DNA from: a virus
IMG/VR virus record: IMGVR_UViG_3300035670_000871
Reading direction: 5' to 3' (one strand)
Length of the DNA: 32,019 bases
Shown: piece after piece, positions 1 through 16,081 of the stretch
Layout of the letters: each line of letters opens with the position of its first letter
How positions within the stretch are numbered: the first letter of the stretch is position 1
Program-made: the position numbers and the translations under genes
Notes under the pieces: model-generated
The model's input: only the letters and a program-made list of their open reading frames with translations
What the model was told of the DNA's origin: nothing
The model's database searches: none

Positions 1-127
1 ATCTCTTGCACGAGTGACGATGAATCATTCTTCACGACTGTGATGTTAGATCCACCATCTCAAAGTTTTGTCGATTTCAATCTGGTCACACAAGCATTGG
101 TCTGGCAATGGGTCTACGCAAAGATTT
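1..127. repeat. Terminal direct repeat, copy A (identical to 31893-32019); circular-contig overlap
   Basis: Read directly: atctcttgcacgagtgacgatgaatc...gggtctacgcaaagattt occurs at 1-127 and again at 31893-32019, which is the exact window end. I saw no mismatches. Confidence 0.95.
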
Positions 128-201
128 CCAAAGAAGATATAGAGGCTATTGTTTTGCAGCGCATTGCAGATCGACAAACTGTTTCACAAATGCCGTGGTA
201 A
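1..201 (+). CDS. Hypothetical protein, 3' part of the ORF that wraps the contig junction (starts at 31812)
   Basis: The frame is continuous through the overlap: 31893 and position 1 are both codon position 1. Stop TAA at 199-201. The reconstructed product is 93 aa (MSCTWSITKMVSDPDEHDRPNVIREVTISCTSDDESFF...VSQMPW). No family recognised. Confidence 0.55.
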   Translation: MSCTSDDESFFTTVMLDPPSQSFVDFNLVTQALVWQWVYAKISKEDIEAIVLQRIADRQTVSQMPW

Positions 202-210
202 GGAAATGAC

Positions 211-939
211 ATGACACAAGCAGTACAACTCAGAAAAGGCACGACCTCCGAACATTCGACCTTTACGGGTTTGCAGGCAGAGGCAACTGTCGACACGACT
301 AAGAAAACCATCGTAGTCCATGATGGGTCGACTGCTGGCGGCATTCCTTTATCCAGAGAGGATCTGAGCAATGCGAATCCTAGCAATCTGACTACGATTG
401 TTGGGGCTGATACGGCATCTGGCGATCTCTTTGTTGTTTATGACGTTTCAGCGAGCGCGTTTAAGAAGATCACCAGGGCTGAGCTGAACAATGCAATGGA
501 GCAAGATGCACTAGCTTCTGTTGCGATCACTGGCGGCAGCATCAACGGCACGACGATTGGCGCAAGCACTGCAAGCACAGGAGCTTTCACCACCTTATCT
601 GCCTCAAGCACAGTTAGCGGTAATGGATTCAGCACTTATCTAGCCAGCCCACCAACTATTGGCGGCACTAGTCCAGGACTTATAACTGGGACAACAATAA
701 CAGCGACAAATCAATTTTCTGGGCCACATAATGGATCTGTTGGCGCAACCTCGCCGTCGAGCGGAATATTTACCTCATTGGCATCTTTAAGTGTTTTACA
801 AAATGTCCAAACAATTGCATCATCATCATCCATTTCAGCTGGCAACAATGGGCTTTCAGTTGGGCCTGTGACTATTTCTGGTGGGGCTGTTTTTACAGTT
901 CCAAGTGCAAGTATTTGGAAAATTTTAGAAGGAGTTTGA
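211..939 (+). CDS. Tail fibre protein with an Mtd-N-terminal-type domain
   Basis: AAGGAA lies upstream of ATG 211. The N-terminus MTQAVQLRKGTTSEHSTFTGLQAEATVDTTKKTIVVHDGSTAGGIPL fits the QxRxGT..F.G...E..VDT....VVHDG.T.GG motif of the major-tropism-determinant / phage tail-fibre N-terminal domain. The remainder is G/S/T/A-rich and fibre-like. Confidence 0.7.
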   Translation: MTQAVQLRKGTTSEHSTFTGLQAEATVDTTKKTIVVHDGSTAGGIPLSREDLSNANPSNLTTIVGADTASGDLFVVYDVSASAFKKITRAELNNAMEQDALASVAITGGSINGTTIGASTASTGAFTTLSASSTVSGNGFSTYLASPPTIGGTSPGLITGTTITATNQFSGPHNGSVGATSPSSGIFTSLASLSVLQNVQTIASSSSISAGNNGLSVGPVTISGGAVFTVPSASIWKILEGV

Positions 940-940
940 C

Positions 941-1951
941 ATGGCCTATGGCAAAGTGCTCGCAAATGCGACATCTGCAACCGGCGTATTTCGCAAAGCT
1001 GATCCCACAATCGTCGCATGGACCAAAACTGGCGCATTTACAGCTACAACAGCGACTGAATTAACGATTGAGGTAAATGGTGAATCGCAAATCATTGCGT
1101 CTGGAACCTCGATCACGATGCCAGGTTCGGCCACGACAGGAACAGATTATGCAATCTGGGCAAAAACTGATGGCACATTGCAAGCAACAACCGATCACAC
1201 ATCTGCTCCGGCGACTGGTGCTAGAAAAGTCGGTGGGTTTCATTACGCGCCAGGCGGCAACGCAACAGGGACATCTGGCGGTAATACCACAGCAGGAATT
1301 AACGAATATTCTTTTTGGGACTTGAAATTCAGGCCAGCTTGTAAAGATCCTCGCGGCATGACGCTAGTGGCTGGATGTTTTTGGTCTGATATCTATCTTT
1401 GCGGGGTCGATCACTATACAAACGGGACGAGCAAATATAACGTCACGATCGCAGACGGTTCATCGCTGCCTAAGATTAGTGCAGCTTTTGGGGGCACAGG
1501 ATCTAACTCTTATGCTGGCGGCACTTGGTTTGCTTTCAATGAAATTATGCGCGGAGCTGGTAAGCGACTGCCAAGATATACAGAGTTTGCTGCTTTAGCC
1601 TATGGCACGACCGAGGCTTCTTCGCTCGGATCTGATCCGACTACAACAGGGGTCAGCAGCGGCACGTACACAAGCAAATGGGGCGTGATGCAATCCAGTG
1701 GAGTTATGTGGCAGTGGTCAGATGACTTTATTGCAAGTGGCGATGGGACTGGCGGCTGGCAAACTGGACTTACAGAAACCAGAGGCAATATTTATACTTA
1801 CAATTCCTCGGCACGCGCTGGGCTCTTGGGCGGCGGCTGGGCCGACGGGTCGGGTTCCGGTTCTCGTTGCTCGAACTGGACCTACGATCCATCGCTCTCG
1901 GCCAGCCCCATCGGGGCTCGCGGCGTGTGTGACCACCTGATTCTTGATTAA
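941..1951 (+). CDS. DGR target protein, Mtd-like receptor-binding protein with a C-terminal C-type-lectin-fold variable region
   Basis: Strong RBS GAAGGAG at 928-934, then ATG 941. KVGGFHYAPG, NEYSFWDLKFRP, DPRGMTLVAG, TSKYNVTIADG and the C-terminal IGARGVCDHLILD resemble Bordetella phage BPP-1 Mtd (from memory, not aligned). The last 41-46 codons are the VR paired with the TR at 2345-2467. Confidence 0.9.
   Translation: MAYGKVLANATSATGVFRKADPTIVAWTKTGAFTATTATELTIEVNGESQIIASGTSITMPGSATTGTDYAIWAKTDGTLQATTDHTSAPATGARKVGGFHYAPGGNATGTSGGNTTAGINEYSFWDLKFRPACKDPRGMTLVAGCFWSDIYLCGVDHYTNGTSKYNVTIADGSSLPKISAAFGGTGSNSYAGGTWFAFNEIMRGAGKRLPRYTEFAALAYGTTEASSLGSDPTTTGVSSGTYTSKWGVMQSSGVMWQWSDDFIASGDGTGGWQTGLTETRGNIYTYNSSARAGLLGGGWADGSGSGSRCSNWTYDPSLSASPIGARGVCDHLILD
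1811..1933 (+). repeat. DGR variable repeat (VR); conservative core 1816-1933
   Basis: Aligns without gaps to 2345-2467 (offset 534). There are 20 mismatches, all opposite a TR adenine, and 0 mismatches at the 92 non-A positions. It lies at the 3' end of the target CDS, in frame. Confidence 0.93.
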
Positions 1952-1965
1952 GTGGCGAAAGCCAC
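1952..1965 (+). promoter_or_regulatory. Hairpin (5-bp stem, GAAA loop) immediately after the VR/target stop; candidate DGR target-recognition hairpin/cruciform
   Basis: gtggc-gaaa-gccac at 1952-1965 is a perfect inverted repeat. It starts 1 nt after the TAA at 1949-1951 and 18 nt after the last VR/TR-identical base. No T-run follows, so it is not a typical terminator. Confidence 0.5.
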
Positions 1966-1971
1966 GTTGTC

Positions 1972-2346
1972 ATGGAACCAATCTCAGAGGCGACACAATG
2001 TTACGATCAGATGGCTATTATCGAAAAGTACGAAAGGGTCATAGCCTATCTATATCCAATTGCTCAATCGATGCCTCGTCGACATGGGATAGCCAGAGAC
2101 AAGTTTTTGAATTGTCTTTTTTCGGTTCCAGATCTTTTATATCAAGCGGGGAAATCAAATCAGATAAGCAAGATATATGCTGCAGATGCTGGATTGGCTC
2201 ATCTGCGGTTTTGGATGCGATTTCTTTTTACGATCAAAAGCATGACGCAACATCAGCTGCAAACGGCTCAGGCTGTTTTGGCAGAAGTTGGGGCGATGCT
2301 TGGAGGTTGGATCAAAAGAAGAAGAGCGCAGGGGCATACTGGGTAA
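1972..2346 (+). CDS. avd: Accessory variability determinant (Avd)-like protein
   Basis: 124 aa, predicted helical, with a basic C-terminus (GGWIKRRRAQGHTG). It sits between the target gene and the TR exactly as avd does in BPP-1-type DGRs. Its stop TAA (2344-2346) abuts or overlaps the TR start. Confidence 0.8.
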   Translation: MEPISEATQCYDQMAIIEKYERVIAYLYPIAQSMPRRHGIARDKFLNCLFSVPDLLYQAGKSNQISKIYAADAGLAHLRFWMRFLFTIKSMTQHQLQTAQAVLAEVGAMLGGWIKRRRAQGHTG

Positions 2347-2467
2347 AAACGCTGGGATCTTGGGCGGCAACTGGAACAACGGGTCGGATTCCGGTTCTCG
2401 TTGCTCGAACTGGAACAACGATCCATCGAACTCGAACAACAACATCGGGGCTCGCGGCGTGTGTGAC
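2345..2467 (+). repeat. DGR template repeat (TR); conservative core 2350-2467
   Basis: Non-coding copy of the VR. It has 31 adenines, 20 of which are substituted in the VR. Read in the VR frame it carries 11 AAC codons (KNAGILGGNWNNGSDSGSRCSNWNNDPSNSNNNIGARGVCD). Homology breaks at 2468 (g in TR versus c in VR), a non-A difference. Confidence 0.93.
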
Positions 2468-2612
2468 GACATCGATTTATCGCTTCGTAAAGGCTTACGC
2501 ATTACGAGCAGGCCTGTCAAAATGTGGTCAGCCAGCAGTGTCCTCCTTCGGGGAATACATCAAGAGGTCTGGCATAACGTCAAGTAGGCAATCCAAAGAC
2601 GGGGCTAGCACA
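2468..2612 (+). ncRNA. TR-RT spacer, probable 3' part of the DGR template RNA
   Basis: 145-bp gap between the TR and the RT start, with no credible independent ORF. Small hairpin cgtaa-aggc-ttacg at 2486-2499. The functional role is inferred from the BPP-1 DGR RNA (TR plus spacer); it was not folded here. Confidence 0.4.
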
Positions 2613-3605
2613 ATGCCAAAACGACACAGGCATTTGATTGAAAAAATTGCGGACATCCAGAATTTGAGATCTGCATATATCAATACGGCACGATCCAAAC
2701 GAATGACTCATGGATATTTAGAGTTTAAGGAATACGCCGAATCAAATTTATCATTGATTCAATCAGAGCTTTTGGATGGTGGCTATAAGATTGGTCCTTA
2801 TAGAGAGTTTATTATTTATGAGCCTAAGGCGCGATTGATTTCTGCTCTTGATTTCAAAGACAGGTTGGTGCAACACGCACTTTGTAATGTTATTGGACCG
2901 ATCTTCGAAAAAGCAATGCTTCCGCAAACCTTTGCATGTCGTGTTGGACTTGGCACACATGCAGGAGTCAAATATTTGCAAGCGGAAATGCGTCGAATTG
3001 ATGCAACGCACTTTTTGAAAACTGATTTCTCAAAATATTTCCCATCCATAGATCATAAAATCTTGCATGAGATGATTGATCGTAAAATTGACTGCGAAAA
3101 GACCCTGAAGATTCTAAGAGAGATTATTCCAATCAATGGAAAGGGCATCCCGATTGGAAGTTTAACTTCGCAGCTTTTTGCAAATGTTTATGGCGGTTCT
3201 GTTGATCGTTATATTCACTTTGAATTAAAACATCGAGCATGGGCAAGATACATGGATGATATTGTGATTCTTGGGCATGACGAAAAAGAGCTGAGAAGTT
3301 CGTTTTCTAAGATACAAATCTTTTCAAAAGAAAAGTTACTATTAGCAATAAGCAAGTGGCAATCTGGGCCTATCAGCAGAGGCATCAACTTTCTTGGGTA
3401 TCGTATCTGGCCCACGCACAAGCTCTTGAGGAAAGATTCTGTAATAAGAGCAAAACAAAAGATTTCAAAGTTTGTTCGTCTTGGCGATCAAGACTCATTA
3501 AGAAAATTCATTGCTTCATGGTCTGGTCATGCTCGTTGGGCAGACACGCACAACCTTTTTAATTGGATGGAGAATCGACATGGCATCGTTTGTCATCAAC
3601 AGTAG
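2613..3605 (+). CDS. DGR-type reverse transcriptase
   Basis: 331 aa from ATG 2613 (MPKRHRHLIEKI...). RT motifs: LISALDFKDRLVQHAL, FLKTDFSKYFPSIDH, motif 4 IPIGSLTSQLFANVY (the DGR-clade IGxxxSQ signature), motif 5 RYMDDIVILG, and GINFLGYRIW. The size is typical of DGR RTs. Confidence 0.95.
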   Translation: MPKRHRHLIEKIADIQNLRSAYINTARSKRMTHGYLEFKEYAESNLSLIQSELLDGGYKIGPYREFIIYEPKARLISALDFKDRLVQHALCNVIGPIFEKAMLPQTFACRVGLGTHAGVKYLQAEMRRIDATHFLKTDFSKYFPSIDHKILHEMIDRKIDCEKTLKILREIIPINGKGIPIGSLTSQLFANVYGGSVDRYIHFELKHRAWARYMDDIVILGHDEKELRSSFSKIQIFSKEKLLLAISKWQSGPISRGINFLGYRIWPTHKLLRKDSVIRAKQKISKFVRLGDQDSLRKFIASWSGHARWADTHNLFNWMENRHGIVCHQQ

Positions 3606-3819
3606 GGCTGATCTTGATGCAATTGCAGGGACGGTAGAACATCAACGATTTATGCAGGCTTTGCGCGGGTCAATGATTCGCAAGATCAATGTTCAGACGT
3701 ATCCTGATGGATACAACCAGCCTGGCTATAGTGGACCGACATTGGAACCAGTTTGGCAAGATCAGGAAGATCTATCTACGATCGAGCAATTTGGTTTTAC
3801 CAAAGAAGATTTTGAGTGA
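3580..3819 (+). CDS. Hypothetical protein (79 aa)
   Basis: GGAG lies upstream of ATG 3580 (MASFVINSRADLDAIAG...). Overlaps the RT 3' end by 26 nt. The track ORF at 3511 is probably an over-extension. No family recognised. Confidence 0.5.
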   Translation: MASFVINSRADLDAIAGTVEHQRFMQALRGSMIRKINVQTYPDGYNQPGYSGPTLEPVWQDQEDLSTIEQFGFTKEDFE

Positions 3820-3826
3820 GGATGAA

Positions 3827-3991
3827 ATGTCACGCGATGAGGCTTTAGCAGCAATCGAAAAGCACGAGGCTTTATGTGCCTTGCAATATGCTCAGATAAA
3901 CGCTCGACTAAAACGCTTGGAGCAGATTCTGCTTGGTGCTGGCGGTGCAATTATCCTGCTGCTGGTCAACCTGGTGCTAAAGCTGCATTGA
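3827..3991 (+). CDS. Small tail-anchored membrane protein (54 aa)
   Basis: ATG 3827 (MSRDEALAAIEKHE...) follows the stop of the previous ORF. The C-terminal hydrophobic stretch ILLGAGGAIILLLVNLVLKL is a likely TM helix. Sits in the lysis-cassette neighbourhood. Confidence 0.45.
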   Translation: MSRDEALAAIEKHEALCALQYAQINARLKRLEQILLGAGGAIILLLVNLVLKLH

Positions 3992-3992
3992 C

Positions 3993-4175
3993 GTGGAAGC
4001 GATCACCGAAGCTGTCTCGAAATTGTGGTACTTAGGGGCGGCAGTGGTCGGCATTGCTGCTTATGCAGTGACCTTAAAAGTCAGGCTCGATTACTTAGAA
4101 AAGGGCTATGACAAGCAGATCACAGCTCTCTGGGAAAAGGTCAACGAGCTGACTGAAAAACTAGGAATGCGATGA
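3993..4175 (+). CDS. Small membrane protein (60 aa): N-terminal TM plus coiled-coil tail
   Basis: GTG start at 3993, 1 nt after the previous stop. LWYLGAAVVGIAAYAVTL is a likely TM helix, followed by a heptad-like LDYLEKGYDKQITALWEKVNELTEKL. Confidence 0.4.
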   Translation: MEAITEAVSKLWYLGAAVVGIAAYAVTLKVRLDYLEKGYDKQITALWEKVNELTEKLGMR

Positions 4176-4657
4176 TGTTTGATTTGCTCAGCGGCGGTCT
4201 GCTTGGCAGTATCTTTGGCGGTCTTTTTAGACTTGCTCCAGAAGTGCTCAAGTATTTTGACAAGAAGAACGAGCGAAGCCACGAGCTGCAAATGTTCACG
4301 CTCCAGACGGACCTAGAAAAGATGCGTGGTCAGTTTCGGATGGAAGAGCGATATGTCGATCACAGCATTGCTCAGATGGATGCCATAAAGGAGGCTTTTA
4401 AGGAGCAAGCTGAGACTGCCAAGGCTGCGGGATGGTTCGTCGCTGCGATCTCTGCTCTTGTTAGACCTGGAATCACTTGGGTCGCTTTTGGCATGTATAT
4501 GACAGTCAAGATTGTTGGTCTCATGATGGCTTTAGATGCTTCAGCTGATTGGCGAGAAGTGATCGTGAAAAGCTGGGATGAAGATGACTTTGCCATGCTG
4601 AACATGATGCTCACTTTTTGGTTTATTGGTCGCTCCATCGAGAAATATCAAAAGTGA
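4172..4657 (+). CDS. Putative holin (multi-TM, GTA/3TM-holin-like)
   Basis: ATGATG start overlaps the previous stop. 161 aa with hydrophobic segments (LLSGGLLGSIFGGLF; GWFVAAISALV; WVAFGMYMTVKIVGLMMAL; MLNMMLTFWFIG). Lies directly upstream of the endolysin and is translationally coupled to it (GTGA). Confidence 0.45.
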   Translation: MMFDLLSGGLLGSIFGGLFRLAPEVLKYFDKKNERSHELQMFTLQTDLEKMRGQFRMEERYVDHSIAQMDAIKEAFKEQAETAKAAGWFVAAISALVRPGITWVAFGMYMTVKIVGLMMALDASADWREVIVKSWDEDDFAMLNMMLTFWFIGRSIEKYQK

Positions 4658-5121
4658 ATCCAGAGGCAATCAAGATAGCGATTGCAATCATCAAGCAGTT
4701 TGAAGGGTACGCAAAGCGATTGCCTGATGGCGGCTGCACTGCTTATCCAGATCCTGGCACTGGAGCAGATCCTTGGACTATTGGGTATGGTTGCACAGGA
4801 GCAAACATCAAAAAAGGCACTGTGTGGACTAAAGAGCAAGCAGAGCGAGCCCTGGAAAATGAGGTGATCCACTTCATGAAAGCAGTGCTGCAACATTCGC
4901 CAGGCTTGGCAGAAGATGCTCCGAGAAGGCTTGCAGCGATTACCTCCTTTGCCTTCAATTGCGGTGTTGGCAATTACAGGATCAGCACACTAAAACGCAG
5001 AGTGAATGAACGTGACTGGGCAGCTGCTGCTCAAGAGATAAAACGCTGGAACAGAGCTGCTGGCAGGATCATGCCTGGTCTTAGTAGGCGCAGGGAGGCT
5101 GAGTCTCTTTTACTGCAATAG
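4654..5121 (+). CDS. Endolysin, GH24 (T4/lambda-R-type) lysozyme
   Basis: GTG 4654 overlaps the holin stop (GTGA). IIKQFEGYAKRL...AYPDPG...WTIGYG...ITSFAFNCG...GLSRRREAE is the classic GH24 E-x8-D-x5-T arrangement with conserved blocks. Confidence 0.85.
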   Translation: MNPEAIKIAIAIIKQFEGYAKRLPDGGCTAYPDPGTGADPWTIGYGCTGANIKKGTVWTKEQAERALENEVIHFMKAVLQHSPGLAEDAPRRLAAITSFAFNCGVGNYRISTLKRRVNERDWAAAAQEIKRWNRAAGRIMPGLSRRREAESLLLQ

Positions 5122-5332
5122 TCACGATGTGAGCTCGGTTCCTGGCTCCAATCTTCAGCTTTATAAGCGCAATGTGAGCTTTCACTGTATTGATTGAGAT
5201 CTCCAGTTGCTCAGCAATCTCGGCATTGTTCAGACCTATTCGGATGCACTGGACGATTTCTCGCTGTCTTGCTGTGAGATCCTTTCCTCGTAGTGCAAGA
5301 TTCGGTGGCAGTTGGCGCAAAGGGCTATGCAC
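5081..5332 (-). CDS. LuxR/GerE-type helix-turn-helix transcriptional regulator (stand-alone DNA-binding domain)
   Basis: LTARQREIVQCIRIGLNNAEIAEQLEISINTVKAHIALIKLKIGARNRAHIV is a textbook GerE/LuxR C-terminal HTH. The start is uncertain: the ORF overlaps the HNH gene by 97 nt. Its 3' end overlaps the endolysin 3' end by 41 nt on the opposite strand. Confidence 0.7.
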   Translation of the reverse strand: MHSPLRQLPPNLALRGKDLTARQREIVQCIRIGLNNAEIAEQLEISINTVKAHIALIKLKIGARNRAHIVTIAVKETQPPCAY

Positions 5333-5616
5333 TTTTTAAGCTCCTCTCTAATTTTTTTATAGGAGTAATTCTTAAAAAGCTGGTTGACTGTTTTATCTTT
5401 TTCGCTTGGATCGAGATGATGAAAGTCAATAATCGCAGGGTGACTTGCACCACACTTGGCGCATTGCAAAGTGCTTTTGAATCGCTGCCATTCCTCTCTG
5501 TGCTTAGCTTTATTCGCTGCAACCACAGCTTTATGCTTTGCTGAGTTTTTCTTGTACCAGACCGAGTTATAAGCACGACTCCTGATTTTTCGGATCTCAG
5601 GATCTTTGTAAGGCAT
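5236..5616 (-). CDS. HNH endonuclease
   Basis: CAKCGASHPAIIDFHHLDPSEKDK...KCIALCANCHRILH gives CxxC...HH...N...CxxCH, the zinc-finger HNH core. Confidence 0.8.
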   Translation of the reverse strand: MPYKDPEIRKIRSRAYNSVWYKKNSAKHKAVVAANKAKHREEWQRFKSTLQCAKCGASHPAIIDFHHLDPSEKDKTVNQLFKNYSYKKIREELKKCIALCANCHRILHYEERISQQDSEKSSSASE

Positions 5617-5653
5617 TCAGGGCGAGATTCTAACCATCGCTCTAAGATTTGTC

Positions 5654-6280
5654 TCATGATTTTTTACCTTCTTTTAGTGCCAGCAAATCCTCGATCACAG
5701 CATCGCATTCAATCAAGAATTGCACTGCAAGCTCCTCGACGTTGGCGATCTCTTCATCGGTTGGCTGAAATCGCACGACAAACAAATCAAGCCCTTTTGG
5801 GAACCTCGGATCGTAAGAAACAAAGTCACACCATTTGCGCCTGGTGCAAGCAAGCTGAGCAAGCATTTGCGGTTTGTGCTCGGCAGGAACGACCTTGCTT
5901 GTCAGCCAGGTGAGGTGATTCAGAGACTCTGGGCATTTGATTTCGACAAGCCCTTCGCTGCCAATCAGACCATCTGGTGATGCGCCAAAGCCTGTGATGC
6001 TCGGATGATCGACGAACCCAGCTTGGTCGACCATCTCTTGCGCTGCGAGCTCGTAGGCAATCCTGGCATCGTTTTCTTGCTCGACTCCCCATTGCATCGC
6101 ACGATTCACAAAGACTGGTGATGGATTGCCTGTCAGCCTCTCACAGATGAGCTGCATTCGATATTTAGCTCGCTCGGCAGATTCGGTCTTGTCCTTCTTA
6201 AACGACATAGCATCTGACATGCGCGATGCAGTTAATTTGCCAAGCCTTACTGCAAACCATTCTGGTGATCGTTGTTCCAT
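5654..6280 (-). CDS. YqaJ-type (lambda-exonuclease-fold) recombination exonuclease
   Basis: The N-terminus MEQRSPEWFAVRLGKLTASRMSD is the YqaJ signature (W...R.G.iTAS). ATG at 6280 overlaps the upstream TGA by 1 nt. Paired with an annealing protein immediately upstream. Confidence 0.8.
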   Translation of the reverse strand: MEQRSPEWFAVRLGKLTASRMSDAMSFKKDKTESAERAKYRMQLICERLTGNPSPVFVNRAMQWGVEQENDARIAYELAAQEMVDQAGFVDHPSITGFGASPDGLIGSEGLVEIKCPESLNHLTWLTSKVVPAEHKPQMLAQLACTRRKWCDFVSYDPRFPKGLDLFVVRFQPTDEEIANVEELAVQFLIECDAVIEDLLALKEGKKS

Positions 6281-6855
6281 CACTTGACTCCTAATTCGGT
6301 TTTGCGTAGATCCTTGGCTTTTACAATATCAAGCCTTCTTGGGTCACCTTTTGGTAATGCCTGCTGTGCCTGCACATAAGCGGCCTGGAGCGATTCTTTG
6401 TCGGCTGCCTTAGTGATGTTGTCTAGCAGTGATTCGTAGTCCACAGCGACCGATTCTGAGCCATCCTGAGTCTTTGCTTCGATATTTGTTTCGACTTTAG
6501 GATCTGGCAGCGACTCGTCCTCATAGACATAGAGACCAAGGCCAAAGAGCGCACAGGCTTTCACCAGGCAACGCTGCATGGCTTTGTTGATGTCCATTGC
6601 ATTCGGATTCACGATCGCTTTGTTCTTGAAATCCATCACAGGCAGGTGGGCGGTCCTGGTTACTCCTTGGACGGTTAGCGAGCAATAGACCATGACGGTT
6701 TCTGCAAACCATTTTTCTTCTTCAAACTTGAAGGTTGCAGTCGGGTCTATCCGCATGATCTGATCCCAAGCGCGAGCCCAAGGCAGATATTTCATGCCTT
6801 GCTTGGTCTTGAGGTCTTTTTCTAGATTGATTTGTGCGATGTCTTGGTAGTTCAT
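6280..6855 (-). CDS. Single-strand annealing protein, Rad52-like (Sak / DUF1071-type)
   Basis: YLPWARAWDQIMRIDP...VMVYCSLTVQGVTRTAHLPVMD...NKAMQRCLVKACALFGLGLYVYEDE matches my recollection of the DUF1071/Sak family blocks. Its position next to the YqaJ exonuclease fits a two-component recombinase. Confidence 0.6.
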   Translation of the reverse strand: MNYQDIAQINLEKDLKTKQGMKYLPWARAWDQIMRIDPTATFKFEEEKWFAETVMVYCSLTVQGVTRTAHLPVMDFKNKAIVNPNAMDINKAMQRCLVKACALFGLGLYVYEDESLPDPKVETNIEAKTQDGSESVAVDYESLLDNITKAADKESLQAAYVQAQQALPKGDPRRLDIVKAKDLRKTELGVK

Positions 6856-7124
6856 AGCAAATGCCTTCCGATAGTATTCATGACTGCGACGATAGATCCC
6901 CAGAGGACAAAATAAAGCAAGCCCTTTTCGACTCGATACTTGATTGCCTCTCTGGGAAGTTTGCGAAGGAAAAAGATGTCTTGCAGCCAGAGCTGATCGC
7001 TGCTGATATGGTTTGCAAGCGGTTTGCGGTAGTTAGACGAGATTTTCACTCGATGACCTAGCGGCACTGCCACAGGGATGATCTCCCCATCTCTTATATA
7101 GAAAGCCATGTTATTTCCCATCAT
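6852..7124 (-). CDS. Hypothetical protein (90 aa; start may be the ATG at 7109)
   Basis: ATGA overlap with the downstream gene. C-terminal hydrophobic segment LLYFVLWGSIVAVM. No family recognised. Confidence 0.45.
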   Translation of the reverse strand: MMGNNMAFYIRDGEIIPVAVPLGHRVKISSNYRKPLANHISSDQLWLQDIFFLRKLPREAIKYRVEKGLLYFVLWGSIVAVMNTIGRHLL

Positions 7125-7365
7125 TTTTGTGTTGATCTAAGTAGTCGATCAGTGCTTTTATGGTCGTCATCAGCAGGGCAACCTGATGCGCGAAATAAGA
7201 GTCAATAGGCTTCATGTCGCAGAAGATCCTGCCTCCAAAGCTATCCTGAAGCATCTCGTTGCCTTCATTAAGATTGCGGCGAATCTCTGCAAGCGAAGGT
7301 GGCTTTCTAGCTGGGCAGCGTCTGCCTTGATCGCAGTCTTGATTGCAAGGTGGACAGGTTTTCAC
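7111..7365 (-). CDS. Hypothetical Cys-rich protein (84 aa)
   Basis: GTG start in a GTGA overlap with the upstream stop. The N-terminal CPPCNQDCDQGRRCP cluster suggests a metal-binding knuckle. Confidence 0.45.
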   Translation of the reverse strand: MKTCPPCNQDCDQGRRCPARKPPSLAEIRRNLNEGNEMLQDSFGGRIFCDMKPIDSYFAHQVALLMTTIKALIDYLDQHKNDGK

Positions 7366-8114
7366 TGCTCACCCCTTGCTCTGATTGCGTCTGCGTATTG
7401 CCTGCCCATGTAGAACTCGTCATCCGCAGCTTGCTCACACACCTTCGCACACGCCTCGCGCTCGCGCTCCCTGATCTGCCACTCCAACTCTTTCAGCAGG
7501 TCTTCCACGGTGTCGCCGTGTCCTGTGGCATAGCCTTGTCGCATCATCCATGCAGCCACTTTCTCACGTTCAGTTTCAATCGCTTTGTTCCAAATCGCCA
7601 TAGCCAATGCTGTGTAAGCGTTGTGTGGGCCTTTAGCGCATAGCTCCATGTCAAGGTGTGTGACGTTGCCGTCTTTGTCTACTCGCGCCCAGATTTCTGA
7701 GGTGTTGGAATGTCCCCATGTGATTTGCGGGTCTGGTAGCGGCACGCTTATGCGAAGTGCGCCGTTCTCTGGCAGCGTGTACATATAGCTGACGTTTTCT
7801 TCGTCGCGTTGGTATTGGCGGGTGTCGTCGGCATCGACTTCCTTCGGTAGCAGTTCAAAATGGTCAGCCACCTGCTGGTTCGTGTACTGACCGACATGCC
7901 CATCAGGAAATTTGACATACTGACGATCCGTTCCGCTAATGTGGATGACGCAGTACTCTTCCGTCTCTAGGCACAAGAGCCTGTCACCTCGGCGGTATTT
8001 AGGTTTCTCAAGTGCTTGGCGCAAGGCCGTTGTAACCTTTTCTAGCAAGCCAATCCATTCACGCTTACCGAGTTTGCAAAGGCCGCATATACATTCAACA
8101 GGCTCTTGTTTCAT
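7362..8114 (-). CDS. Hypothetical protein (250 aa)
   Basis: The best start is ATG 8114 (MKQEPVECICGLCK...), preceded by GGGGGA and overlapping the stop of a small upstream ORF (ATGA). The track start at 8126 is a TTG. No family recognised. Confidence 0.55.
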   Translation of the reverse strand: MKQEPVECICGLCKLGKREWIGLLEKVTTALRQALEKPKYRRGDRLLCLETEEYCVIHISGTDRQYVKFPDGHVGQYTNQQVADHFELLPKEVDADDTRQYQRDEENVSYMYTLPENGALRISVPLPDPQITWGHSNTSEIWARVDKDGNVTHLDMELCAKGPHNAYTALAMAIWNKAIETEREKVAAWMMRQGYATGHGDTVEDLLKELEWQIREREREACAKVCEQAADDEFYMGRQYADAIRARGEQ

Positions 8115-8194
8115 AGCATCCCCCAAACAATCAAGGCATAGACAAGACCGAACAACGCACCACCGGCAATAAGACTAAAGTTTGATGATTTCAT
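8111..8194 (-). CDS. Possible 27-aa hydrophobic peptide (below the ORF-track threshold)
   Basis: My own translation of the minus strand gives ATG(8194) MKSSNFSLIAGGALFGLVYALIVWGML TGA(8111). The stop overlaps the next ATG (ctATGAaa). It fills the only gap in this operon. Confidence 0.3.
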   Translation of the reverse strand: MKSSNFSLIAGGALFGLVYALIVWGML

Positions 8195-8198
8195 GGCT

Positions 8199-8549
8199 TT
8201 ACTCGCAACGTAGGACTTGGTAATGGTCACCGGCTGAGCAGCTCTTGTAAGAACCTTTCCCCCAGCGATCAGAGCACCAGGCTGTTACAGCTCCAGAAAG
8301 AGCCTTTTTGTCATGAGGCCCAAAAGGAATACAAGCAACATCTCCGATTTTTACGTCTTGCAAAAACGGCACAAAATATTTTGCATAAGTGCCAGGTGGT
8401 ACGGTGTGATGTCGTTTCTTAGGCTTTGCAGATTCCAGTTGCCCGTACTCAGTACCATCTGGAGAGATGATCTTGTACTGACAACCGGCAGCGGTTAAAA
8501 GATTCATCGCTTGATGGATCGTTTTTGTAATGATTGCTGGCTGTGTCAT
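8199..8549 (-). CDS. Hypothetical protein (116 aa), first gene of the minus-strand early operon
   Basis: Strong RBS CAGGAGAAACTATG on the minus strand. No family recognised. Confidence 0.55.
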   Translation of the reverse strand: MTQPAIITKTIHQAMNLLTAAGCQYKIISPDGTEYGQLESAKPKKRHHTVPPGTYAKYFVPFLQDVKIGDVACIPFGPHDKKALSGAVTAWCSDRWGKGSYKSCSAGDHYQVLRCE

Positions 8550-8678
8550 AGTTTCTCCTGTGTTTTGGTCTTATTAGCTTAATCCTTTTAGGCTATATGT
8601 CTAGCCCTTTTGGACTATATTTTTGATTCGTAGCATTTGTGCGACACATTCAGAAAAAAGAGCAGATAGACTTTCGGC
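8550..8678. promoter_or_regulatory. Divergent intergenic control region between the minus-strand and plus-strand early operons
   Basis: 129-bp AT-rich gap between divergent starts. 15-bp direct repeats ccttttaggctatat (8584-8598) and ccttttggactatat (8606-8620) match at 13/15 positions with a 22-bp pitch. Short inverted repeat ggcta-N6-tagcc at 8591-8606. TATAT-type -10 candidates and TTGATT at 8623-8628. Confidence 0.4.
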
Positions 8679-8996
8679 ATGGCAAAAACATCACCAACAC
8701 AGCGATCGCTTCAGCTCATGCGGGATAGAGGTTGTCTTGCAGAGGTGGTGGAGCGATGGAATCCGCACTCACGCACCAGGCACGATCTCTGGGGGTTTGT
8801 AGACATCATCTGCCTGGATGACAACCAGGTGATCGCTGTGCAATCAACCTCAAGATCCAACATGAGTGCTCGAATTCGCAAGATAGAAGAACACGAGAAC
8901 CTCGCAGCGGTCCTGAGAGCTGGCATCCAGATCGTGGTTCACGGTTGGAAGAAGGACAAAGCTGGCAAGTGGCTTGTTGACGAGTTTACTTTTTAG
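8679..8996 (+). CDS. Hypothetical protein, possibly a PD-(D/E)XK-fold nuclease (Hjc-like resolvase layout)
   Basis: The size (105 aa) and the pattern ...VVERW...DLWGFVDIICLDDNQVIAVQSTS... resemble the E / D / (D/E)xK layout of small archaeal-type resolvases. The canonical Lys is not evident. Confidence 0.3.
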   Translation: MAKTSPTQRSLQLMRDRGCLAEVVERWNPHSRTRHDLWGFVDIICLDDNQVIAVQSTSRSNMSARIRKIEEHENLAAVLRAGIQIVVHGWKKDKAGKWLVDEFTF

Positions 8997-9043
8997 GATT
9001 ATGGTTTGCGGAGTACGGCTAGGGTAGCTCCCGAAAAGCAGAT

Positions 9044-9080
9044 TCCTTCACCTGCCTGCCAATACTCCCATCGTGAAGGA
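9044..9080 (+). promoter_or_regulatory. 8-bp perfect inverted repeat in the leader of the DUF1376 gene
   Basis: tccttcac (9044-9051) and gtgaagga (9073-9080) are separated by 21 nt. The right arm lies 18 nt upstream of the ATG at 9099. Confidence 0.3.
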
Positions 9081-9098
9081 GACTTTTGAAGGAAAGTT

Positions 9099-9779
9099 AT
9101 GCACTACTACCCCCACCATATCGGGGACTTCTTGCGGGATACCGCATCACTTAGTCCAACAGAATCCTACTTTTATTTGAGGCTGATTTGGCTTTACTAC
9201 GAGTCAGAAAGCCCGTTGCCAGATGACCCAGAAGTCTTGGCTTTCAAGATAGGAGCAAGAGATCATCTCGAATCTGTTTCGCTTCTGTTGCGGACCTTTT
9301 TCAGATATGAATCGGATCTGAAATCATATCGGCATCAGAGAATTGACCTCGAGATTTCCAAGTATCAGAAGAAGGCAGCTTCTGCAAAGGTTGCGAATCG
9401 CAAACGATGGGCATCTGAAATGGATCTGAAATCAGATGCGGATCAGATCCCAACCAATAACCAAGAACCAATAACCAATATAAGTAAGCAAAAAAATAGT
9501 TTTGCAAAGCCTGATGGTGTTCCTGATGATCTTTGGCAAGACTTTAAGCAGACAAGAAAAGCCAAACGAGCACCGATAACAAAAGTTGCAATGGATGGCA
9601 TACAGAGAGAAGCAAAGTTGGCAGGCATCCATCTTGGTGATGCTTTGAGAATTGTTTGCGAAAGAGGTTGGACTAGTTTTAAAGCAGATTGGTATTTAAA
9701 CGATAAGGCGAAGCCTGCAAGCCAAAAAACGGACACAGCACCGCGCCAGCTTGATTCGATCATGAAGGGGGCTTTGTGA
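9099..9779 (+). CDS. DUF1376 / YdaU-family protein (phage replication-associated)
   Basis: The N-terminus MHYYPHHIGDFLRDTASLSPTESYFYLRLIWLYYESESPLPDD matches the conserved start of the YdaU/DUF1376 family (hYYxFHIGDYxxDTxHLSxxE.GAYLRLL..YY..E.PLP). Confidence 0.7.
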   Translation: MHYYPHHIGDFLRDTASLSPTESYFYLRLIWLYYESESPLPDDPEVLAFKIGARDHLESVSLLLRTFFRYESDLKSYRHQRIDLEISKYQKKAASAKVANRKRWASEMDLKSDADQIPTNNQEPITNISKQKNSFAKPDGVPDDLWQDFKQTRKAKRAPITKVAMDGIQREAKLAGIHLGDALRIVCERGWTSFKADWYLNDKAKPASQKTDTAPRQLDSIMKGAL

Positions 9780-10090
9780 TGGACCCAGACTTGCAAATCA
9801 TCAGAGACGCTTGCCTGGCTAATCTTTGCAAATCCATCTGGCTTGACTTCGATGGTGGTCACGAAGATCTGCTCGACATGGACCATCCCAAGGTCGATTG
9901 CAAGCAAAGAGACTGGCGGCGCATCAACTTCGGTTTTCTAAAAGGCCAGCGAGTGCATCTCATCGGAGCTGATGCTGATCGTCTTTTGCTAGCCAGAAAA
10001 CGCATCGAGCTCTTTCAACCATCTCGCATCATTGTCCATTACTGGCAAAACAGACCAGCACTTGTCTGGGATTCGGAGGTAGACGCATGA
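9779..10090 (+). CDS. Hypothetical protein (103 aa)
   Basis: ATG 9779 overlaps the upstream TGA by 1 nt. Coupled to its neighbours. Confidence 0.5.
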   Translation: MDPDLQIIRDACLANLCKSIWLDFDGGHEDLLDMDHPKVDCKQRDWRRINFGFLKGQRVHLIGADADRLLLARKRIELFQPSRIIVHYWQNRPALVWDSEVDA

Positions 10091-10284
10091 ACCAGATAGA
10101 GAGGAAGGCTATAAAAGAGGCAATAGAGGCTCTACAAGCGATTATAGATGCCAAGGCATGCCTAGACCTTCTGCAAGCAGAAAAACGCGTCAGCGAGGCT
10201 GTAATCGCTTTAGAGATGCTATTGCAAGCTGACAGCATGATCCGCAACAAACCATTTATTTCAACTGAAGGAGATCGAGCATGA
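10087..10284 (+). CDS. Hypothetical protein (65 aa)
   Basis: ATGA overlaps at both ends. Helical and coiled-coil-like. Confidence 0.45.
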   Translation: MNQIERKAIKEAIEALQAIIDAKACLDLLQAEKRVSEAVIALEMLLQADSMIRNKPFISTEGDRA

Positions 10285-10667
10285 ATAAAGTTGTACTGAT
10301 AGGCAGGGCAGGCAGCGAACCAGAGATCAGAAAAGCAGGAGATGTACCTGTTGCTAACTTCTCTTTGGCAACCTCAGAGATCCGAGGTAAAGGAGACGAT
10401 CGCAAAGAGGAAACAGAGTGGCATCGGGTCCAAGTCTGGGGCAAGCTCGCTGAAATCTGTGCAAGCTATGTTTACAAGGGTCAGCTGCTTGCGGTGGAAG
10501 GCAAGATCAAAACTCGCAAATGGAAGGACAAGGAAGGCAACGACAAACAAAGCACTGAGATTGTGGCTGAGCAAGTTCAGATGCTAAGCAAGCAAGACAA
10601 GCCTGCAAGCAAAACTCAGCCTGCCAAGCCTGAGCTCAATAACGACATCGACGACATTCCTTTTTAA
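10281..10667 (+). CDS. ssb: Single-stranded DNA-binding protein
   Basis: MNKVVLIGRAGSEPEIR...ANFSLAT...TEWHRVQVWGKLAE...YKGQLLAVEGKIKTRKW is an OB-fold SSB. It has the acidic C-terminal tail ending DDIPF. Confidence 0.92.
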   Translation: MNKVVLIGRAGSEPEIRKAGDVPVANFSLATSEIRGKGDDRKEETEWHRVQVWGKLAEICASYVYKGQLLAVEGKIKTRKWKDKEGNDKQSTEIVAEQVQMLSKQDKPASKTQPAKPELNNDIDDIPF

Positions 10668-10676
10668 GGAGCGATC

Positions 10677-11039
10677 ATGGATCTCACACAGAGGCAGAAA
10701 AACTATCTGAGCTATATCGAGAAAAGAAAAATACCACCAAGCTCACGAGACATCGCATTGCAAAACAAAGATGGACCAGACATCGCGCAGCGTACCCTGA
10801 TGTCATTGGTCAGACTTGGATTGTTAGAGTCTTTCGAGCAACGAGACCAGTGGGGTGCAAAGCGTAGGCATTACAAGGTTGCTGATCCTGATAAACCCAA
10901 GGTCGTGCGAGCAGCTCCTGCAAAGCCACAAAAAAAGGTCGAGATTTCTAGCCCAGCAAGCATTGCACTAAAAGCACAAAAGAATTCAGACGGTCCCTGC
11001 TGGCATAACCCGTTTGCAATGGGAGCAAGCCATGTATAA
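10677..11039 (+). CDS. Winged-helix DNA-binding protein
   Basis: AAGGAG RBS. LTQRQKNYLSYIEKRKIPPSSRDIA...IAQRTLMSLVRLGLLE is a wHTH (LexA-N/MarR-like) pattern. Confidence 0.5.
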   Translation: MDLTQRQKNYLSYIEKRKIPPSSRDIALQNKDGPDIAQRTLMSLVRLGLLESFEQRDQWGAKRRHYKVADPDKPKVVRAAPAKPQKKVEISSPASIALKAQKNSDGPCWHNPFAMGASHV

Positions 11040-11412
11040 AAAACGTGGACTCACTGACTTTGGCAGAGATCAGCCATTGACGCACCTGGTGGTCATGGAG
11101 CTTGCAAGGAAATCAGGCTTTGCATCCAAGCTGTATGACAAACCCTTGCAGCAGTTTGCAAAGCTGATTATCACGGCTGCCAACCCAAGACCGATCACCA
11201 AAACACAGAAGATCTATTTGCAAGCCATTGCTCAGCCAAAAACCTTGCAAGACCTTGCAAAGCAATTCGGCTGCACGACTGAAGGAGCAAGAAAGCACCT
11301 AAAAGCTCTGATCCAGCGCGGCCTGGCTGACAAAGAGATCAGGTTTCAGAAGCGATCGGGTCGTGACAAAGGAGCCTGGGCATTTCACTACATAGCAAAG
11401 GAAAAACGATGA
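11032..11412 (+). CDS. Winged-helix DNA-binding protein (paralog-like of the preceding gene)
   Basis: ATG 11032 overlaps the upstream stop. ITKTQKIYLQAIAQPKTLQDLAKQFGCTTEGARKHLKALIQRGLADK has the same TQxQKxYL...DLA...L..L...GL layout as 10677-11039. Confidence 0.5.
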   Translation: MYKKRGLTDFGRDQPLTHLVVMELARKSGFASKLYDKPLQQFAKLIITAANPRPITKTQKIYLQAIAQPKTLQDLAKQFGCTTEGARKHLKALIQRGLADKEIRFQKRSGRDKGAWAFHYIAKEKR

Positions 11413-11642
11413 GACACGATCTTCACTTGCTTTGGATCAAGCATTGCAAAGCGCATGGACTAGACCCTGGCAATCAGCACAATCTAAAACTATTTCGAGC
11501 TGGAGCTGAGGCTGAGAATGAATGCTGCGATGAGGCTATTGCCAAGCTGCACGACTTCTATCTTGAGACCGACACGGCAGCACTAGACATCATCGAGGAA
11601 TGCTCAATTGCAATCTGTGAGAGGTGGTTAGATGGACATTGA
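11409..11642 (+). CDS. Hypothetical protein (77 aa)
   Basis: ATGA coupling. No family recognised. Confidence 0.45.
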   Translation: MRHDLHLLWIKHCKAHGLDPGNQHNLKLFRAGAEAENECCDEAIAKLHDFYLETDTAALDIIEECSIAICERWLDGH

Positions 11643-11814
11643 TCGCATGGCAAGAAAAGCAATCGTGAATGACCTCATCGAGAAAACACCGGCGATGGTC
11701 AAGCAAGATATTCAAATGGAGCTTTTGCTTGAGCAAATCATCGAGCTTGAGAAAACCTCTGAGCTTTTGCTTGCGGAAGCTGAACGGATCGCCAGGAGGT
11801 TTGGATGCAGATAA
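11632..11814 (+). CDS. Hypothetical protein (60 aa)
   Basis: Overlaps both neighbours. Helical. Confidence 0.4.
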   Translation: MDIDRMARKAIVNDLIEKTPAMVKQDIQMELLLEQIIELEKTSELLLAEAERIARRFGCR

Positions 11815-12719
11815 TTCATCCTGGTGAGCTGAGAGAGGTCGAAGAGGCAGAGACGCTAACCAAGTTGCTTACGGCTGCGGACGTGATCGACGAGATGATC
11901 GAGCAGCTGCACGAACCTGAAAAGCGAGAGCAGACCTGGACGCTTCCTTGGCAAAAAACGCATCTTGATTTTAAGTTTCGAGCTGGAGAAGTGACCGTCT
12001 GGGCTGGCAGCAATGGATCAGGCAAGTCACTCATCACAGGTCAAGTGGCTTTGTCGCTGATGGACCAGGGCGCAAAGGTTTGCATCGCCAGTTTCGAGAT
12101 GAAACCCAGCAGGACCATTGCTCGCATGATGAGGCAGTTCAGCTCACGCATCGGTTATGGCGAAGATCACCTAAGAAGTTTTGCTGATCGGTACGGCGAC
12201 AAACTTTATCTTTTCGATCAGCAAGGCATGTGTCCACCGCACCAGGCAATCAACCTCTGCAAGTTTGTATCTGGCAAGCTACAGATCCAGCATGTCATGA
12301 TTGATTCGCTGATGAAGGTTGTCCGAGGCGAAGATGACTACAACGCACAGAAAGACGCAGTGGATGCGCTGACAGCGGTTGCTCGTGATACTGGGCAGCA
12401 TATCCACCTGGTGCATCACATTCGCAAGCTTAAGACCGAGGATGAGATTCCAGGGAAGTTTGATCTGCGAGGATCGAGCTCGATCACTGACCAGGTTGAC
12501 AATGTGCTGATCGTCTGGCGAAACAAACGCAAAGAGAATGACAGAAGAGAAGGCAAGATCTTTGATCCTGCTCATCCTGATGCCATGATTATTTGTGAGA
12601 AGCAGCGCAACGGCGAGACCGAACCAAGAATCGGATTATTCTTCAGTGGTGAGGGCATGAAGTATTACGAAAACCCAGTAGCAGGTGGAGGTGCATGGCA
12701 TGACCCAGAGCAATTCTGA
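11805..12719 (+). CDS. Replicative helicase / RecA-fold ATPase (DnaB C-terminal-like)
   Basis: AGGAGG RBS. Walker A at VWAGSNGSGKSLITGQ, Walker B-like at HVMIDSLMKV, then HIHLVHHIRK and ICEKQRNGE, typical of DnaB-C / AAA_25 phage helicases. Confidence 0.7.
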   Translation: MQIIHPGELREVEEAETLTKLLTAADVIDEMIEQLHEPEKREQTWTLPWQKTHLDFKFRAGEVTVWAGSNGSGKSLITGQVALSLMDQGAKVCIASFEMKPSRTIARMMRQFSSRIGYGEDHLRSFADRYGDKLYLFDQQGMCPPHQAINLCKFVSGKLQIQHVMIDSLMKVVRGEDDYNAQKDAVDALTAVARDTGQHIHLVHHIRKLKTEDEIPGKFDLRGSSSITDQVDNVLIVWRNKRKENDRREGKIFDPAHPDAMIICEKQRNGETEPRIGLFFSGEGMKYYENPVAGGGAWHDPEQF

Positions 12720-15528: not shown

Positions 15529-16081
15529 TCTGACTCCTCAGCGGGTCAATCAACTTGTTAGGTCTGGTGTTATTCCAAAACAAGAGCGCGGTCGATATGA
15601 GCTCGTGCCAGTTGTTAAGGCTTACATAAGATATTTGCGCGATCGTGCAGTCAATAACGATGTCGGTCCTGATTCTCTTAGTAACGAAAGAGCTCGGATG
15701 ACTAAAGCTCGCGCTGATATGTTTGAGATGGAGCGAGATCAGATGCGAGAAACCTTAATCCCATCTGCTGACATTGAGGCGGCTTGGGAAAAGGTTGTGA
15801 TGAATATGAGGGCAAAGCTAATAGCCATTCCTGGCAAGGCTGCTGCGAATGTCTATGCTGCGGAATCGCTTGCAGAAACCAAAGCAATACTGAAAGATGA
15901 GATCTATGAAGCCCTTGGAGAATTATCAAGAGTCGAGGTCCGAGTCGATAACCCTGTGCGGTCATCAGAATCTGAAGAAGATCACGGAGTCAGTGCTGAG
16001 GAAGTTAGCCCCACCACCGGAGATAACCGTAAGCGAGTGGGCAGACCAAGAAAGGAAGCTGAGCCCAGAGTCGTCGGCTGA
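15482..16081 (+). CDS. Terminase small subunit (Nu1-like HTH)
   Basis: The N-terminal HTH ICKLLDLTPQRVNQLVRSGVIPKQERGRYELVPVVKAYIRYLRD resembles Nu1-type small terminases. Lies immediately upstream of the GpA-like large subunit. Confidence 0.65.
   Translation: MAVATYGLETICKLLDLTPQRVNQLVRSGVIPKQERGRYELVPVVKAYIRYLRDRAVNNDVGPDSLSNERARMTKARADMFEMERDQMRETLIPSADIEAAWEKVVMNMRAKLIAIPGKAAANVYAAESLAETKAILKDEIYEALGELSRVEVRVDNPVRSSESEEDHGVSAEEVSPTTGDNRKRVGRPRKEAEPRVVG

Follow-up and report, generated by a model that had tools for sequence, protein, structure and literature searches.

The stretch of DNA analysed here, referred to as the window, is the IMG/VR virus record IMGVR_UViG_3300035670_000871, 32,019 nucleotides (nt) in length and given as one strand, 5' to 3'. 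Near its start lie a gene for an upstream tail protein, a second tail-protein gene that ends in a variable repeat (VR), the avd gene, a template repeat (TR), a spacer (Sp) RNA and a gene for a reverse transcriptase (RT) (Table 1). Each component of this diversity-generating retroelement (DGR) was identified independently of the repeat, and their order is the canonical one of phage BPP-1. The interval 1811–2467 is almost certainly the VR/TR pair of a complete BPP-1-type DGR, carried by a tailed-phage genome of about 31.9 kb.

The two repeats and the retroelement components

Ungapped alignment of 1811–1933 with 2345–2467 covers 123 positions and contains 20 mismatches, each at one of the 31 TR adenines (A>G, nine; A>C, nine; A>T, two), with no mismatch at any other template base. 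The programmatic alignment thereby reproduced the figures of the initial annotation, which had named non-adenine mismatches inside the repeat as one of the observations that would speak against it; none was found in 1811–1933 on recomputation. The corresponding hypergeometric P is 1.7e-15. In a 118-nt core (1816–1933), offered by the same annotation as an alternative and found to give the correct figure, 16 of 26 TR adenines and 0 of 92 non-adenine positions are substituted (P = 2.3e-13). A repeat finder returned the pair 1816–1936 and 2350–2470 with 86% identity, and a repeat search gave no third copy within the window.

All VR codons that differ from the TR differ non-synonymously. In the frame of the target gene, the mutable adenines of the TR sit in 10 AAC, two ATC and two GAT codons, so that 14 residues are able to vary (295, 299, 301, 302, 305, 312, 314, 315, 316, 319, 321, 322, 323 and 324), with a theoretical repertoire of 15^10 × 4^4 = 1.5e14 proteins. 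The 11 AAC codons counted earlier are present in this frame, but the eleventh straddles the 5' boundary of the repeat, leaving 10 inside the tract. The accompanying claim that this codon design has no nonsense outcome holds, as no stop codon can be obtained from adenine changes in the TR codons.

Table 1. Features of the window, with their positions and the matches or alignments on which they are based (aa, amino acids; bp, base pairs; IMH, initiation of mutagenic homing sequence; IMH*, its TR counterpart; ORF, open reading frame)
Feature	Position	Strand	Basis and remarks
Upstream tail protein, 242 aa	211-939	+	Pfam PF18454 Mtd_N at residues 5-41, E = 2.4e-14; PHROG tail protein
DGR target, 336 aa	941-1951	+	PF21916 (Mtd second domain), E = 1.5e-17; phrog_11262, E = 3.7e-110
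VR	1816-1946	+	131 nt; gapless alignment to BPP-1 VR
VR diversified tract	about 1816-1911	+	Within target gene
GC-rich IMH segment	1912-1925	+	Alignment to BPP-1
21-bp IMH element TGTGTGACCACCTGATTCTTG	1926-1946	+	20/21 identical to BPP-1 IMH
Hairpin/cruciform GTGGC-GAAA-GCCAC	1952-1965	+	Directly after target TAA, 5 nt past IMH
avd, 124 aa	1972-2346	+	PF22296 bAvd, E = 2.8e-28, 99 bits against a cut-off of 40; phrog_3206 'Avd protein of DGR'
ORF X	1998-2612	+	205 stop-free codons; avd -1 frame, the same as the RT frame; ATG at 1998, GAGG at 1986-1989
TR	2350-2480	+	131 nt; reverse-transcribed part 2350-2463, with 25 adenines
IMH*	2446-2480	+	21-bp part 2460-2480 differs from IMH at 8/21
Sp RNA	2482-2609	+	Rfam RF03022 Phage_DGR, 89.7 bits against a gathering threshold of 50; model positions 1-127 (full length)
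DGR RT, 330 aa	2613-3605	+	PF00078; PDB 8ub7 bRT, E = 4.5e-147, residues 1-328 gapless
int-alpA RNA motif RF02996	9013-9079	+	Rfam, 42.2 bits against a gathering threshold of 35.8
Large terminase	15897-17765		Closest to Roseobacter phages CRP-811 and CRP-82x, 61-65% aa identity (among matches listed)
Single ORF, 835 aa	19796-22303		Prohead protease (Peptidase_S78) domain and HK97-type major capsid domain
gpJ-like tail protein, 1,547 aa	27172-31815		Repeats at 29884-29985 and 30170-30448

The repeat had initially been taken to end at 1933; by homology to BPP-1, IMH and IMH* carry it on to 1946 and 2480. Over its last 13 positions eight differ, six of them at non-adenine template bases; these eight account for all the differences between the 21-bp IMH and IMH*. 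In BPP-1, the difference between IMH and IMH* sets the direction of transfer (PMC3240598), and by this comparison the non-adenine mismatches past 1933 are the expected directional IMH element and do not refute a DGR. The adenine A2466 (codon 331) lies 3' of G2463, the predicted start of the cDNA, and is invariant in all relatives; since it falls outside the predicted cDNA, 16 of 25 mutable adenines are changed.

The hairpin that follows the target gene has a DNA folding energy of -5.7 kcal/mol (z = -2.5). Among 71 loci of the family described below, a stem of at least 5 bp is found in 62 and the loop of the best hairpin is GAAA in 41, with stems mostly of 6 bp. The hairpin of BPP-1 is required for efficient homing, and its GRNA loop is constrained in sequence (PMC3240598).

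The RT is identical to bRT at 211 of 328 residues (64%). It contains the DGR signature IGSLTSQ at residue 181 and the catalytic YMDD at residue 213, and it keeps R74 and I181, which in bRT were shown to promote adenine mutagenesis. The GUGGUCAGCC motif of the spacer is shared with BPP-1. In the alignment, the BPP-1 counterparts of A2530 and G2463 are Sp A56 and TR G117, respectively. In BPP-1, cDNA synthesis is primed by the 2'-OH of Sp A56, and TR G117 is the first nucleotide copied (PMC6182149). By homology, A2530 is the probable equivalent of the priming adenosine. A scan of 1700–3900 for promoters and terminators gave matches no more numerous than in shuffled sequences, and a SNORA2 match at 2060–2173 was rejected as noise (25 bits against a gathering threshold of 70).

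The target protein matches the Mtd structure (PDB 1yu4) with an E-value of 2e-99, its residues 12–336 aligning to Mtd residues 52–381. Modelling on the Mtd fold had been proposed as a check and was carried out at the level of the fold. The AlphaFold2 model (predicted local distance difference test, pLDDT, 85; predicted template-modelling score, pTM, 0.86) was matched by Foldseek to 1yu2 with a template-modelling (TM) score of 0.89 and a root-mean-square deviation of 2.1 Å, at 52–53% sequence identity to Mtd. Weaker matches were to other DGR proteins whose fold is that of C-type lectins (CLec) and to formylglycine-generating enzymes (FGE).

The VR spans codons 292–336 of the target. The residue register (window n corresponds to Mtd n+45) is fixed by the TRs, which are identical at 98 of 131 positions in this register versus 41 of 131 one codon off. 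In this alignment, the 14 variable codons include 11 that fall on variable residues of Mtd, which has 12; codons 295, 316 and 322 are variable only in the window, and the equivalent of Mtd residue 348 is fixed. The variable residues of Mtd are exposed to solvent and touch the receptor (PMC5758913, PMC6328139), and from the homology those of the target are probably solvent-exposed as well.

The three-domain architecture of full-length Mtd (an N-terminal beta-prism, Mtd_N; a beta-sandwich, mtd_2nd; and a C-terminal CLec domain) was not found in the target chain, which starts directly with the beta-sandwich and consists of mtd_2nd and CLec, with no Mtd_N. The Mtd architecture is instead split over two genes, the 242-aa Mtd_N protein ending 1 nt before the target start. 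Relatives share this two-gene layout, with an Mtd_N protein of 294–296 aa. By homology over Mtd residues 52–381, the target is predicted to work like Mtd, yet it is not a full-length Mtd.

Variable repeats in related phages

A protein cluster at 90% identity contains 13 members that are 87–100% identical to the window target and have 13 different VRs. The strongly variable columns of this cluster are exactly the 14 TR codons with an adenine in the first or second position, whereas columns 306 and 334 vary only between lineages. The window and two of its relatives (L003 and L002) show 0 differences in the 600 nt 5' of the VR. Their VRs differ at 17–19 of the 28 sites that are adenine in some TR and at 0–1 of the other 90. 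Homing is therefore very recent on the scale of the lineage. More generally, the TRs of relatives differ by 0–7 nt and their VR adenine sites by 11–23.

Changes in the template can also be followed into the VR. Private non-adenine TR changes (C1T, G34T and T41G), as well as A59T in L003, are mirrored in the cognate VRs, and TR positions that have become adenine in relatives (G37A, G38A and T49A) are variable in those relatives' own VRs. Non-adenine differences between VR and TR in close relatives amount to one in L003 and two in L130. The former is a C>G change at position 8324 in the VR of L003 (ATC>ATG), and the latter are T>G changes at VR core positions 1 and 73 of L130, in otherwise clean patterns.

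Judged from these alignments, the VRs have been rewritten repeatedly within this phage lineage, with the TR and the flanks constant, and the DGR of the window is evidently active. The claim of the initial annotation that mutagenic homing has actually occurred is thus strongly supported by the related contigs, with their different VRs and constant TR and flanks.

One sister lineage has lost most of the element. An identical 1,099-bp deletion is present in two assemblies; it leaves the first 7 nt of the TR and takes out the remainder, along with the spacer and RT residues 1 to about 281. Its junction lies between 12363 and 12364 in L002/L132 (IMGVR_UViG_3300005805_001277; JGI 3300005805) and between 3916 and 3917 in L131 (ENA ERZ27287909 k119_227978), and joins the equivalents of window positions 2356 and 3456. 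The two assemblies differ at 24 of 4,383 positions and have identical VRs, but the absence of differences over 131 nt does not by itself reach significance. In this lineage the VR looks as if it was frozen after the loss of the DGR.

A wider set of RT relatives at 55–74% identity comprised 80 IMG/VR loci that were kept and about 10 contigs from cellular genome assemblies. The latter, metagenome-assembled genomes (MAGs) and one isolate, are mostly from Betaproteobacteria and include one Akkermansiaceae MAG. Mismatches were counted over the BLAST diagonal in 71 TR/VR pairs of BPP-1-like DGRs, which gave 987 mismatches at adenines versus about 117 at other bases, the latter mostly in the IMH. The commonest non-adenine classes, T>G (44) and G>C (32), likewise lie mostly at the IMH. 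A single pair has 6–22 changed adenines, and the 16 of the window are typical. An adenine-masked scan for the TR/VR pattern returned, among metagenome contigs, only the contig known from IMG/VR and, among genome contigs, none.

Three loci of this set stand apart. The TR/VR pair of L059 (IMGVR_UViG_3300029892_000023) has 12 non-adenine versus nine adenine mismatches, and this element may be a decaying or non-canonical DGR. For L066 (IMGVR_UViG_2898237817_000005) and L089 (Pandoraea nosoerga LMG 31109), whose RTs are 64% identical to that of the window, the scan found no TR/VR repeat upstream of the RT; these may have a VR elsewhere or be orphan RTs.

If the window element operates as BPP-1 does, the avd–TR–Sp region would be transcribed, and a complex of RT and Avd would prime from the 2'-OH of A2530 and begin copying at G2463 of the TR. 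Reverse transcription would then proceed toward 2350, with misincorporation only opposite the 25 template adenines, and the cDNA would replace the VR of the tail-protein gene from 1816 to about 1925. The direction of transfer would be set by the difference between IMH (1912–1946) and IMH*, together with the GAAA-loop hairpin. A C-type-lectin fold would thereby be able to present about 1.5e14 different surfaces for receptor binding.

Several points weigh against a functional DGR of this description. The evidence for homing comes from related assemblies at the consensus level, and the mechanistic steps are carried over from BPP-1 at 64% RT identity. The hairpin stem of 5 bp is shorter than the 7–10 bp reported in phage DGRs and the 8–10 bp optimum of BPP-1 (PMC3240598), although 5–6 bp is the usual stem length in this clade, the GC-rich IMH segment is broken by a T, and IMH* differs from IMH at 8 of 21 positions, compared with 5 of 21 in BPP-1. 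Finally, contigs from at least three other sequencing runs, SRR11566350, SRR10854512 and SRR13298164 among them, match the window genome, VR included, at 100% identity over the stretches that they cover, and the VR of the window clone is therefore stable at the consensus level.

This stability, the short hairpin stem and the sister lineage in which the TR, Sp and most of the RT were deleted and the VR is fixed would all agree with a fossil DGR, in which the divergence records ancestral homing and diversification has ended in the window genome. Such an ending is unlikely, however, in view of the intact state of all DGR components, catalytic and adenine-mutagenesis residues included, and the conservation of the TR, IMH, priming adenosine and Sp RNA; moreover, genomes with an identical 600-nt upstream flank already differ at 17–19 VR adenine sites. 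BPP-1 itself switches rarely, and a stable VR consensus is thus to be expected. A DGR that is still capable of diversification accounts better for these observations.

The 5' extent of the repeat is a separate matter. The list of changed residues in the initial annotation was reproduced, and it includes residues 291 and 292, which would be DGR-variable if 1811–1815 belonged to the mutagenised repeat and 20 of 31 adenines were counted. The TR has adenine at each of these five positions, four of which mismatch, and the repeat of BPP-1 begins 3 nt further 5' than the CGCTGGG at which that of the window starts (1816 and 2350, equivalent to BPP-1 TR position 4). An extension to 1811 is nevertheless very improbable. 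The AAAAA of the TR, which stands opposite GCACG in the VR, consists of the final two bases of the avd stop codon followed by AAA; it fits any VR sequence, so the match at 1811–1815 is uninformative. A291 and R292 are invariant in all 13 distinct sequences of relatives, in which the other adenine codons have entropies of 1.3–3.0 bits, and the VR bases just 5' of the repeat (ending in CG) are kept in all lineages, the sole difference being a synonymous third-position change between lineages. The diversified tract therefore begins at or after 1816, and this part of the earlier list does not stand.

An ordinary duplication or a recombination-shuffled tail-fibre segment, with a compositional or coincidental adenine bias and no retroelement, is effectively refuted: recombination commonly exchanges tail-fibre tips and the non-coding TR could be a decaying duplicate, but the adenine-only pattern has a hypergeometric P of about 1e-13 and is repeated across 71 related loci, it is the coding VR that varies and the TR that is conserved, differences among relatives end exactly at the borders of the repeat, the 600-nt flank having 0 changes, and RT, Avd and the DGR RNA are located between or after the two copies.

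An open frame through avd, TR and spacer

The RT frame of the window is open from 1944 in the list of ORFs. From the ATG at 1998 it crosses avd, the TR and the Sp RNA (ORF X, Table 1) and continues into the RT, giving an in-frame fusion of 535 aa (1998–3605). On identical contigs, gene callers report a 535-aa 'RT' from this ATG and skip avd. A look-up of the exact 330-aa RT protein returned no record, because gene callers call the 535-aa ORF.

The open frame recurs in the family. In 46 of 71 loci, the RT frame contains no stop over at least 500 nt upstream of the RT start. BPP-1 is one of these loci, with 699 nt open upstream of brt, 639 nt of them from a GTG start. The stop-free frame is always the -1 frame of avd, regardless of the frame of the RT. 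Expected stop counts were obtained from synonymous shuffles. For the -1 frame of avd the family mean is 1.6 stops observed and 3.9 expected, and the window has 0 stops with 5.6–6.1 expected. The corresponding family means are 5.9 observed and 6.1 expected for the +1 frame of avd, and 16 observed and 19.7 expected for the -1 frame of the RT gene.

The start codon of ORF X combines the final base of Avd codon 9 with the TG of the conserved Cys-10 codon. It is ATG in most loci and otherwise GTG or TTG, with AGGA or GAGG 10–15 nt upstream. The base preceding the Cys codon is C in 0 of 22 four-fold codons, compared with 23% C at such sites elsewhere in avd. Of 65 distinct loci, 40–41 have ORF X as a stop-free stretch of 612–642 nt across avd, TR and spacer, in frame with the RT. 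In nine others it stops at the RT start codon (ATGA or TAATG), one of these nine ending 22 nt into the RT. It is interrupted in 15 of the 65, 10 of which lack the Cys/start codon. Twenty-five representatives were chosen that share less than 75% avd nucleotide identity with one another. The start codon is present in 16 of them, and 15 of these have no stop, compared with 1.5–6.1 expected each and about 44 in total; all eight without a start codon at that position show the expected 3–12 stops. In distant DGRs an open frame was found in 0 of 32, though these are AT-rich.

Two other explanations of the frame were rejected. Composition as such would not explain it, as the +1 frame of avd and the -1 frame of the RT gene are near their expected stop counts, and avd genes without the X start have the 3–12 stops expected of them. 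A programmed -1 frameshift from avd into the RT frame was also considered, and inspection by eye of the avd 3' end in the window and BPP-1 revealed no canonical slippery heptamer. Because the frame is open across the whole of avd and has a conserved start codon, internal initiation fits better than a frameshift.

Such initiation could bear on how the RT is translated. Native brt has no clear ribosome-binding site (RBS), an added RBS raised activity 100-fold in E. coli, and a reconstitution paper of 2026 blames the missing RBS for failure in E. coli (PMC12875486). In the window, the RT start codon is 3 nt past the last stem of the spacer RNA. Ribosomes starting at X would carry translation into brt, either to make an N-terminally extended RT or by coupling of termination and reinitiation. 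On the strength of the sequence comparisons, the proposal that in most BPP-1-like DGRs, the window and BPP-1 among them, the TR also lies within a translated frame that feeds ribosomes into brt is held at even confidence, neither favoured nor disfavoured. ORF X would then impose a hidden coding constraint on the TR sequence.

As caveats to this proposal, the family loci are not independent of one another in phylogenetic terms, bRT translated from its own ATG has activity in vitro, and homing persists with engineered TRs in which the frame is probably disrupted. No description of the ORF X frame was found in the DGR literature searched. The frame may explain how the DGR RT is translated and offers a concrete, directly testable hypothesis; if the hypothesis holds, the frame would limit TR engineering in native-context DGR tools. 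It could matter more than the DGR itself and is worth following up.

Phage backbone and comparison with known systems

The window is a complete tailed-phage genome. It has an exact terminal direct repeat of 127 nt (1–127 and 31893–32019), and both genome ends are bridged by a separate contig (L133); the genome, whose unit measures 31,892 bp, is therefore either circular or terminally redundant. Its genes include a lambda-type large terminase and portal, a tape-measure protein, a lysis cassette, and recombination and replication genes. The int-alpA RNA motif stands just 5' of a DUF1376/replication-initiation-like gene (9099–9779). The gpJ-like tail protein contains degenerate periodic repeats of 30 and 51 nt and has a weak C-terminal match to Peptidase_S74, an intramolecular chaperone; it may be a second, fibre-like receptor-binding protein.

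Membership in Rauchvirus was not found: BPP-1 is absent from the 12 best terminase records listed, and a megablast of window positions 1–12000 against phage records gave zero matches. At the sequence level, the likeness of the window to BPP-1 is limited to the DGR cassette, and the packaging genes are not BPP-1-like. Given a terminase that resembles those of Roseobacter phages and RT relatives that, among cellular genomes, come mostly from Betaproteobacteria, the cassette looks like a horizontally shared module, here on an unrelated backbone.

Among known systems other than BPP-1, the variable proteins TvpA (Treponema denticola, 2y3c) and TaqVP (Thermus aquaticus, 5vf4) share with the target the FGE-type CLec scaffold, a C-terminal VR and AAY-rich template codons. 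In contrast to the target, both are single-domain proteins, monomeric according to the literature, without the Mtd beta-sandwich, and the RTs of their DGRs are distant from that of the window. Their Foldseek matches to the target are weak (E = 1e-3 to 1e-2, about 12–17% identity and a TM score near 0.3 across the full protein). The DGRs of Vibrio phage VP585 and related phages were compared by their phage-borne RTs, which are much more distant, at 35–42% identity.

BPP-1 (mtd–avd–TR–brt; Rauchvirus BPP1, AY029185) is by far the closer system and has the same gene order and spacing. TR and VR align to those of the window without gaps, with the TR and IMH identities given above, and so does the RT. 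The Sp RNA belongs to the same Rfam family and keeps the GUGGUCAGCC priming motif. The hairpin is in the same place and has a GAAA loop in both phages, with a stem of 8 bp in BPP-1 and 5 bp in the window.

The differences concern the target and its setting. BPP-1 Mtd is a single chain with a beta-prism, whereas the window target is without Mtd_N, which is carried by the upstream 242-aa protein. The window has 14 variable codons and 25 mutable adenines, compared with 12 and 22–23 in BPP-1, and the repertoires are about 1.5e14 and 1e13, respectively; 11 of the 12 variable residues of BPP-1 Mtd are also variable in the window. The backbone of the window phage, about 32 kb with a lambda-type terminase and portal and the gpJ-like tail protein, is unrelated to that of BPP-1.

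The window DGR is thus an ordinary, well-preserved member of the known BPP-1 family, a clean and fully equipped element on an unrelated backbone. Its relatives amount to a natural experiment that matches the rules established for BPP-1: change at adenines only, transfer of TR markers to the VR and a fixed 3' boundary.

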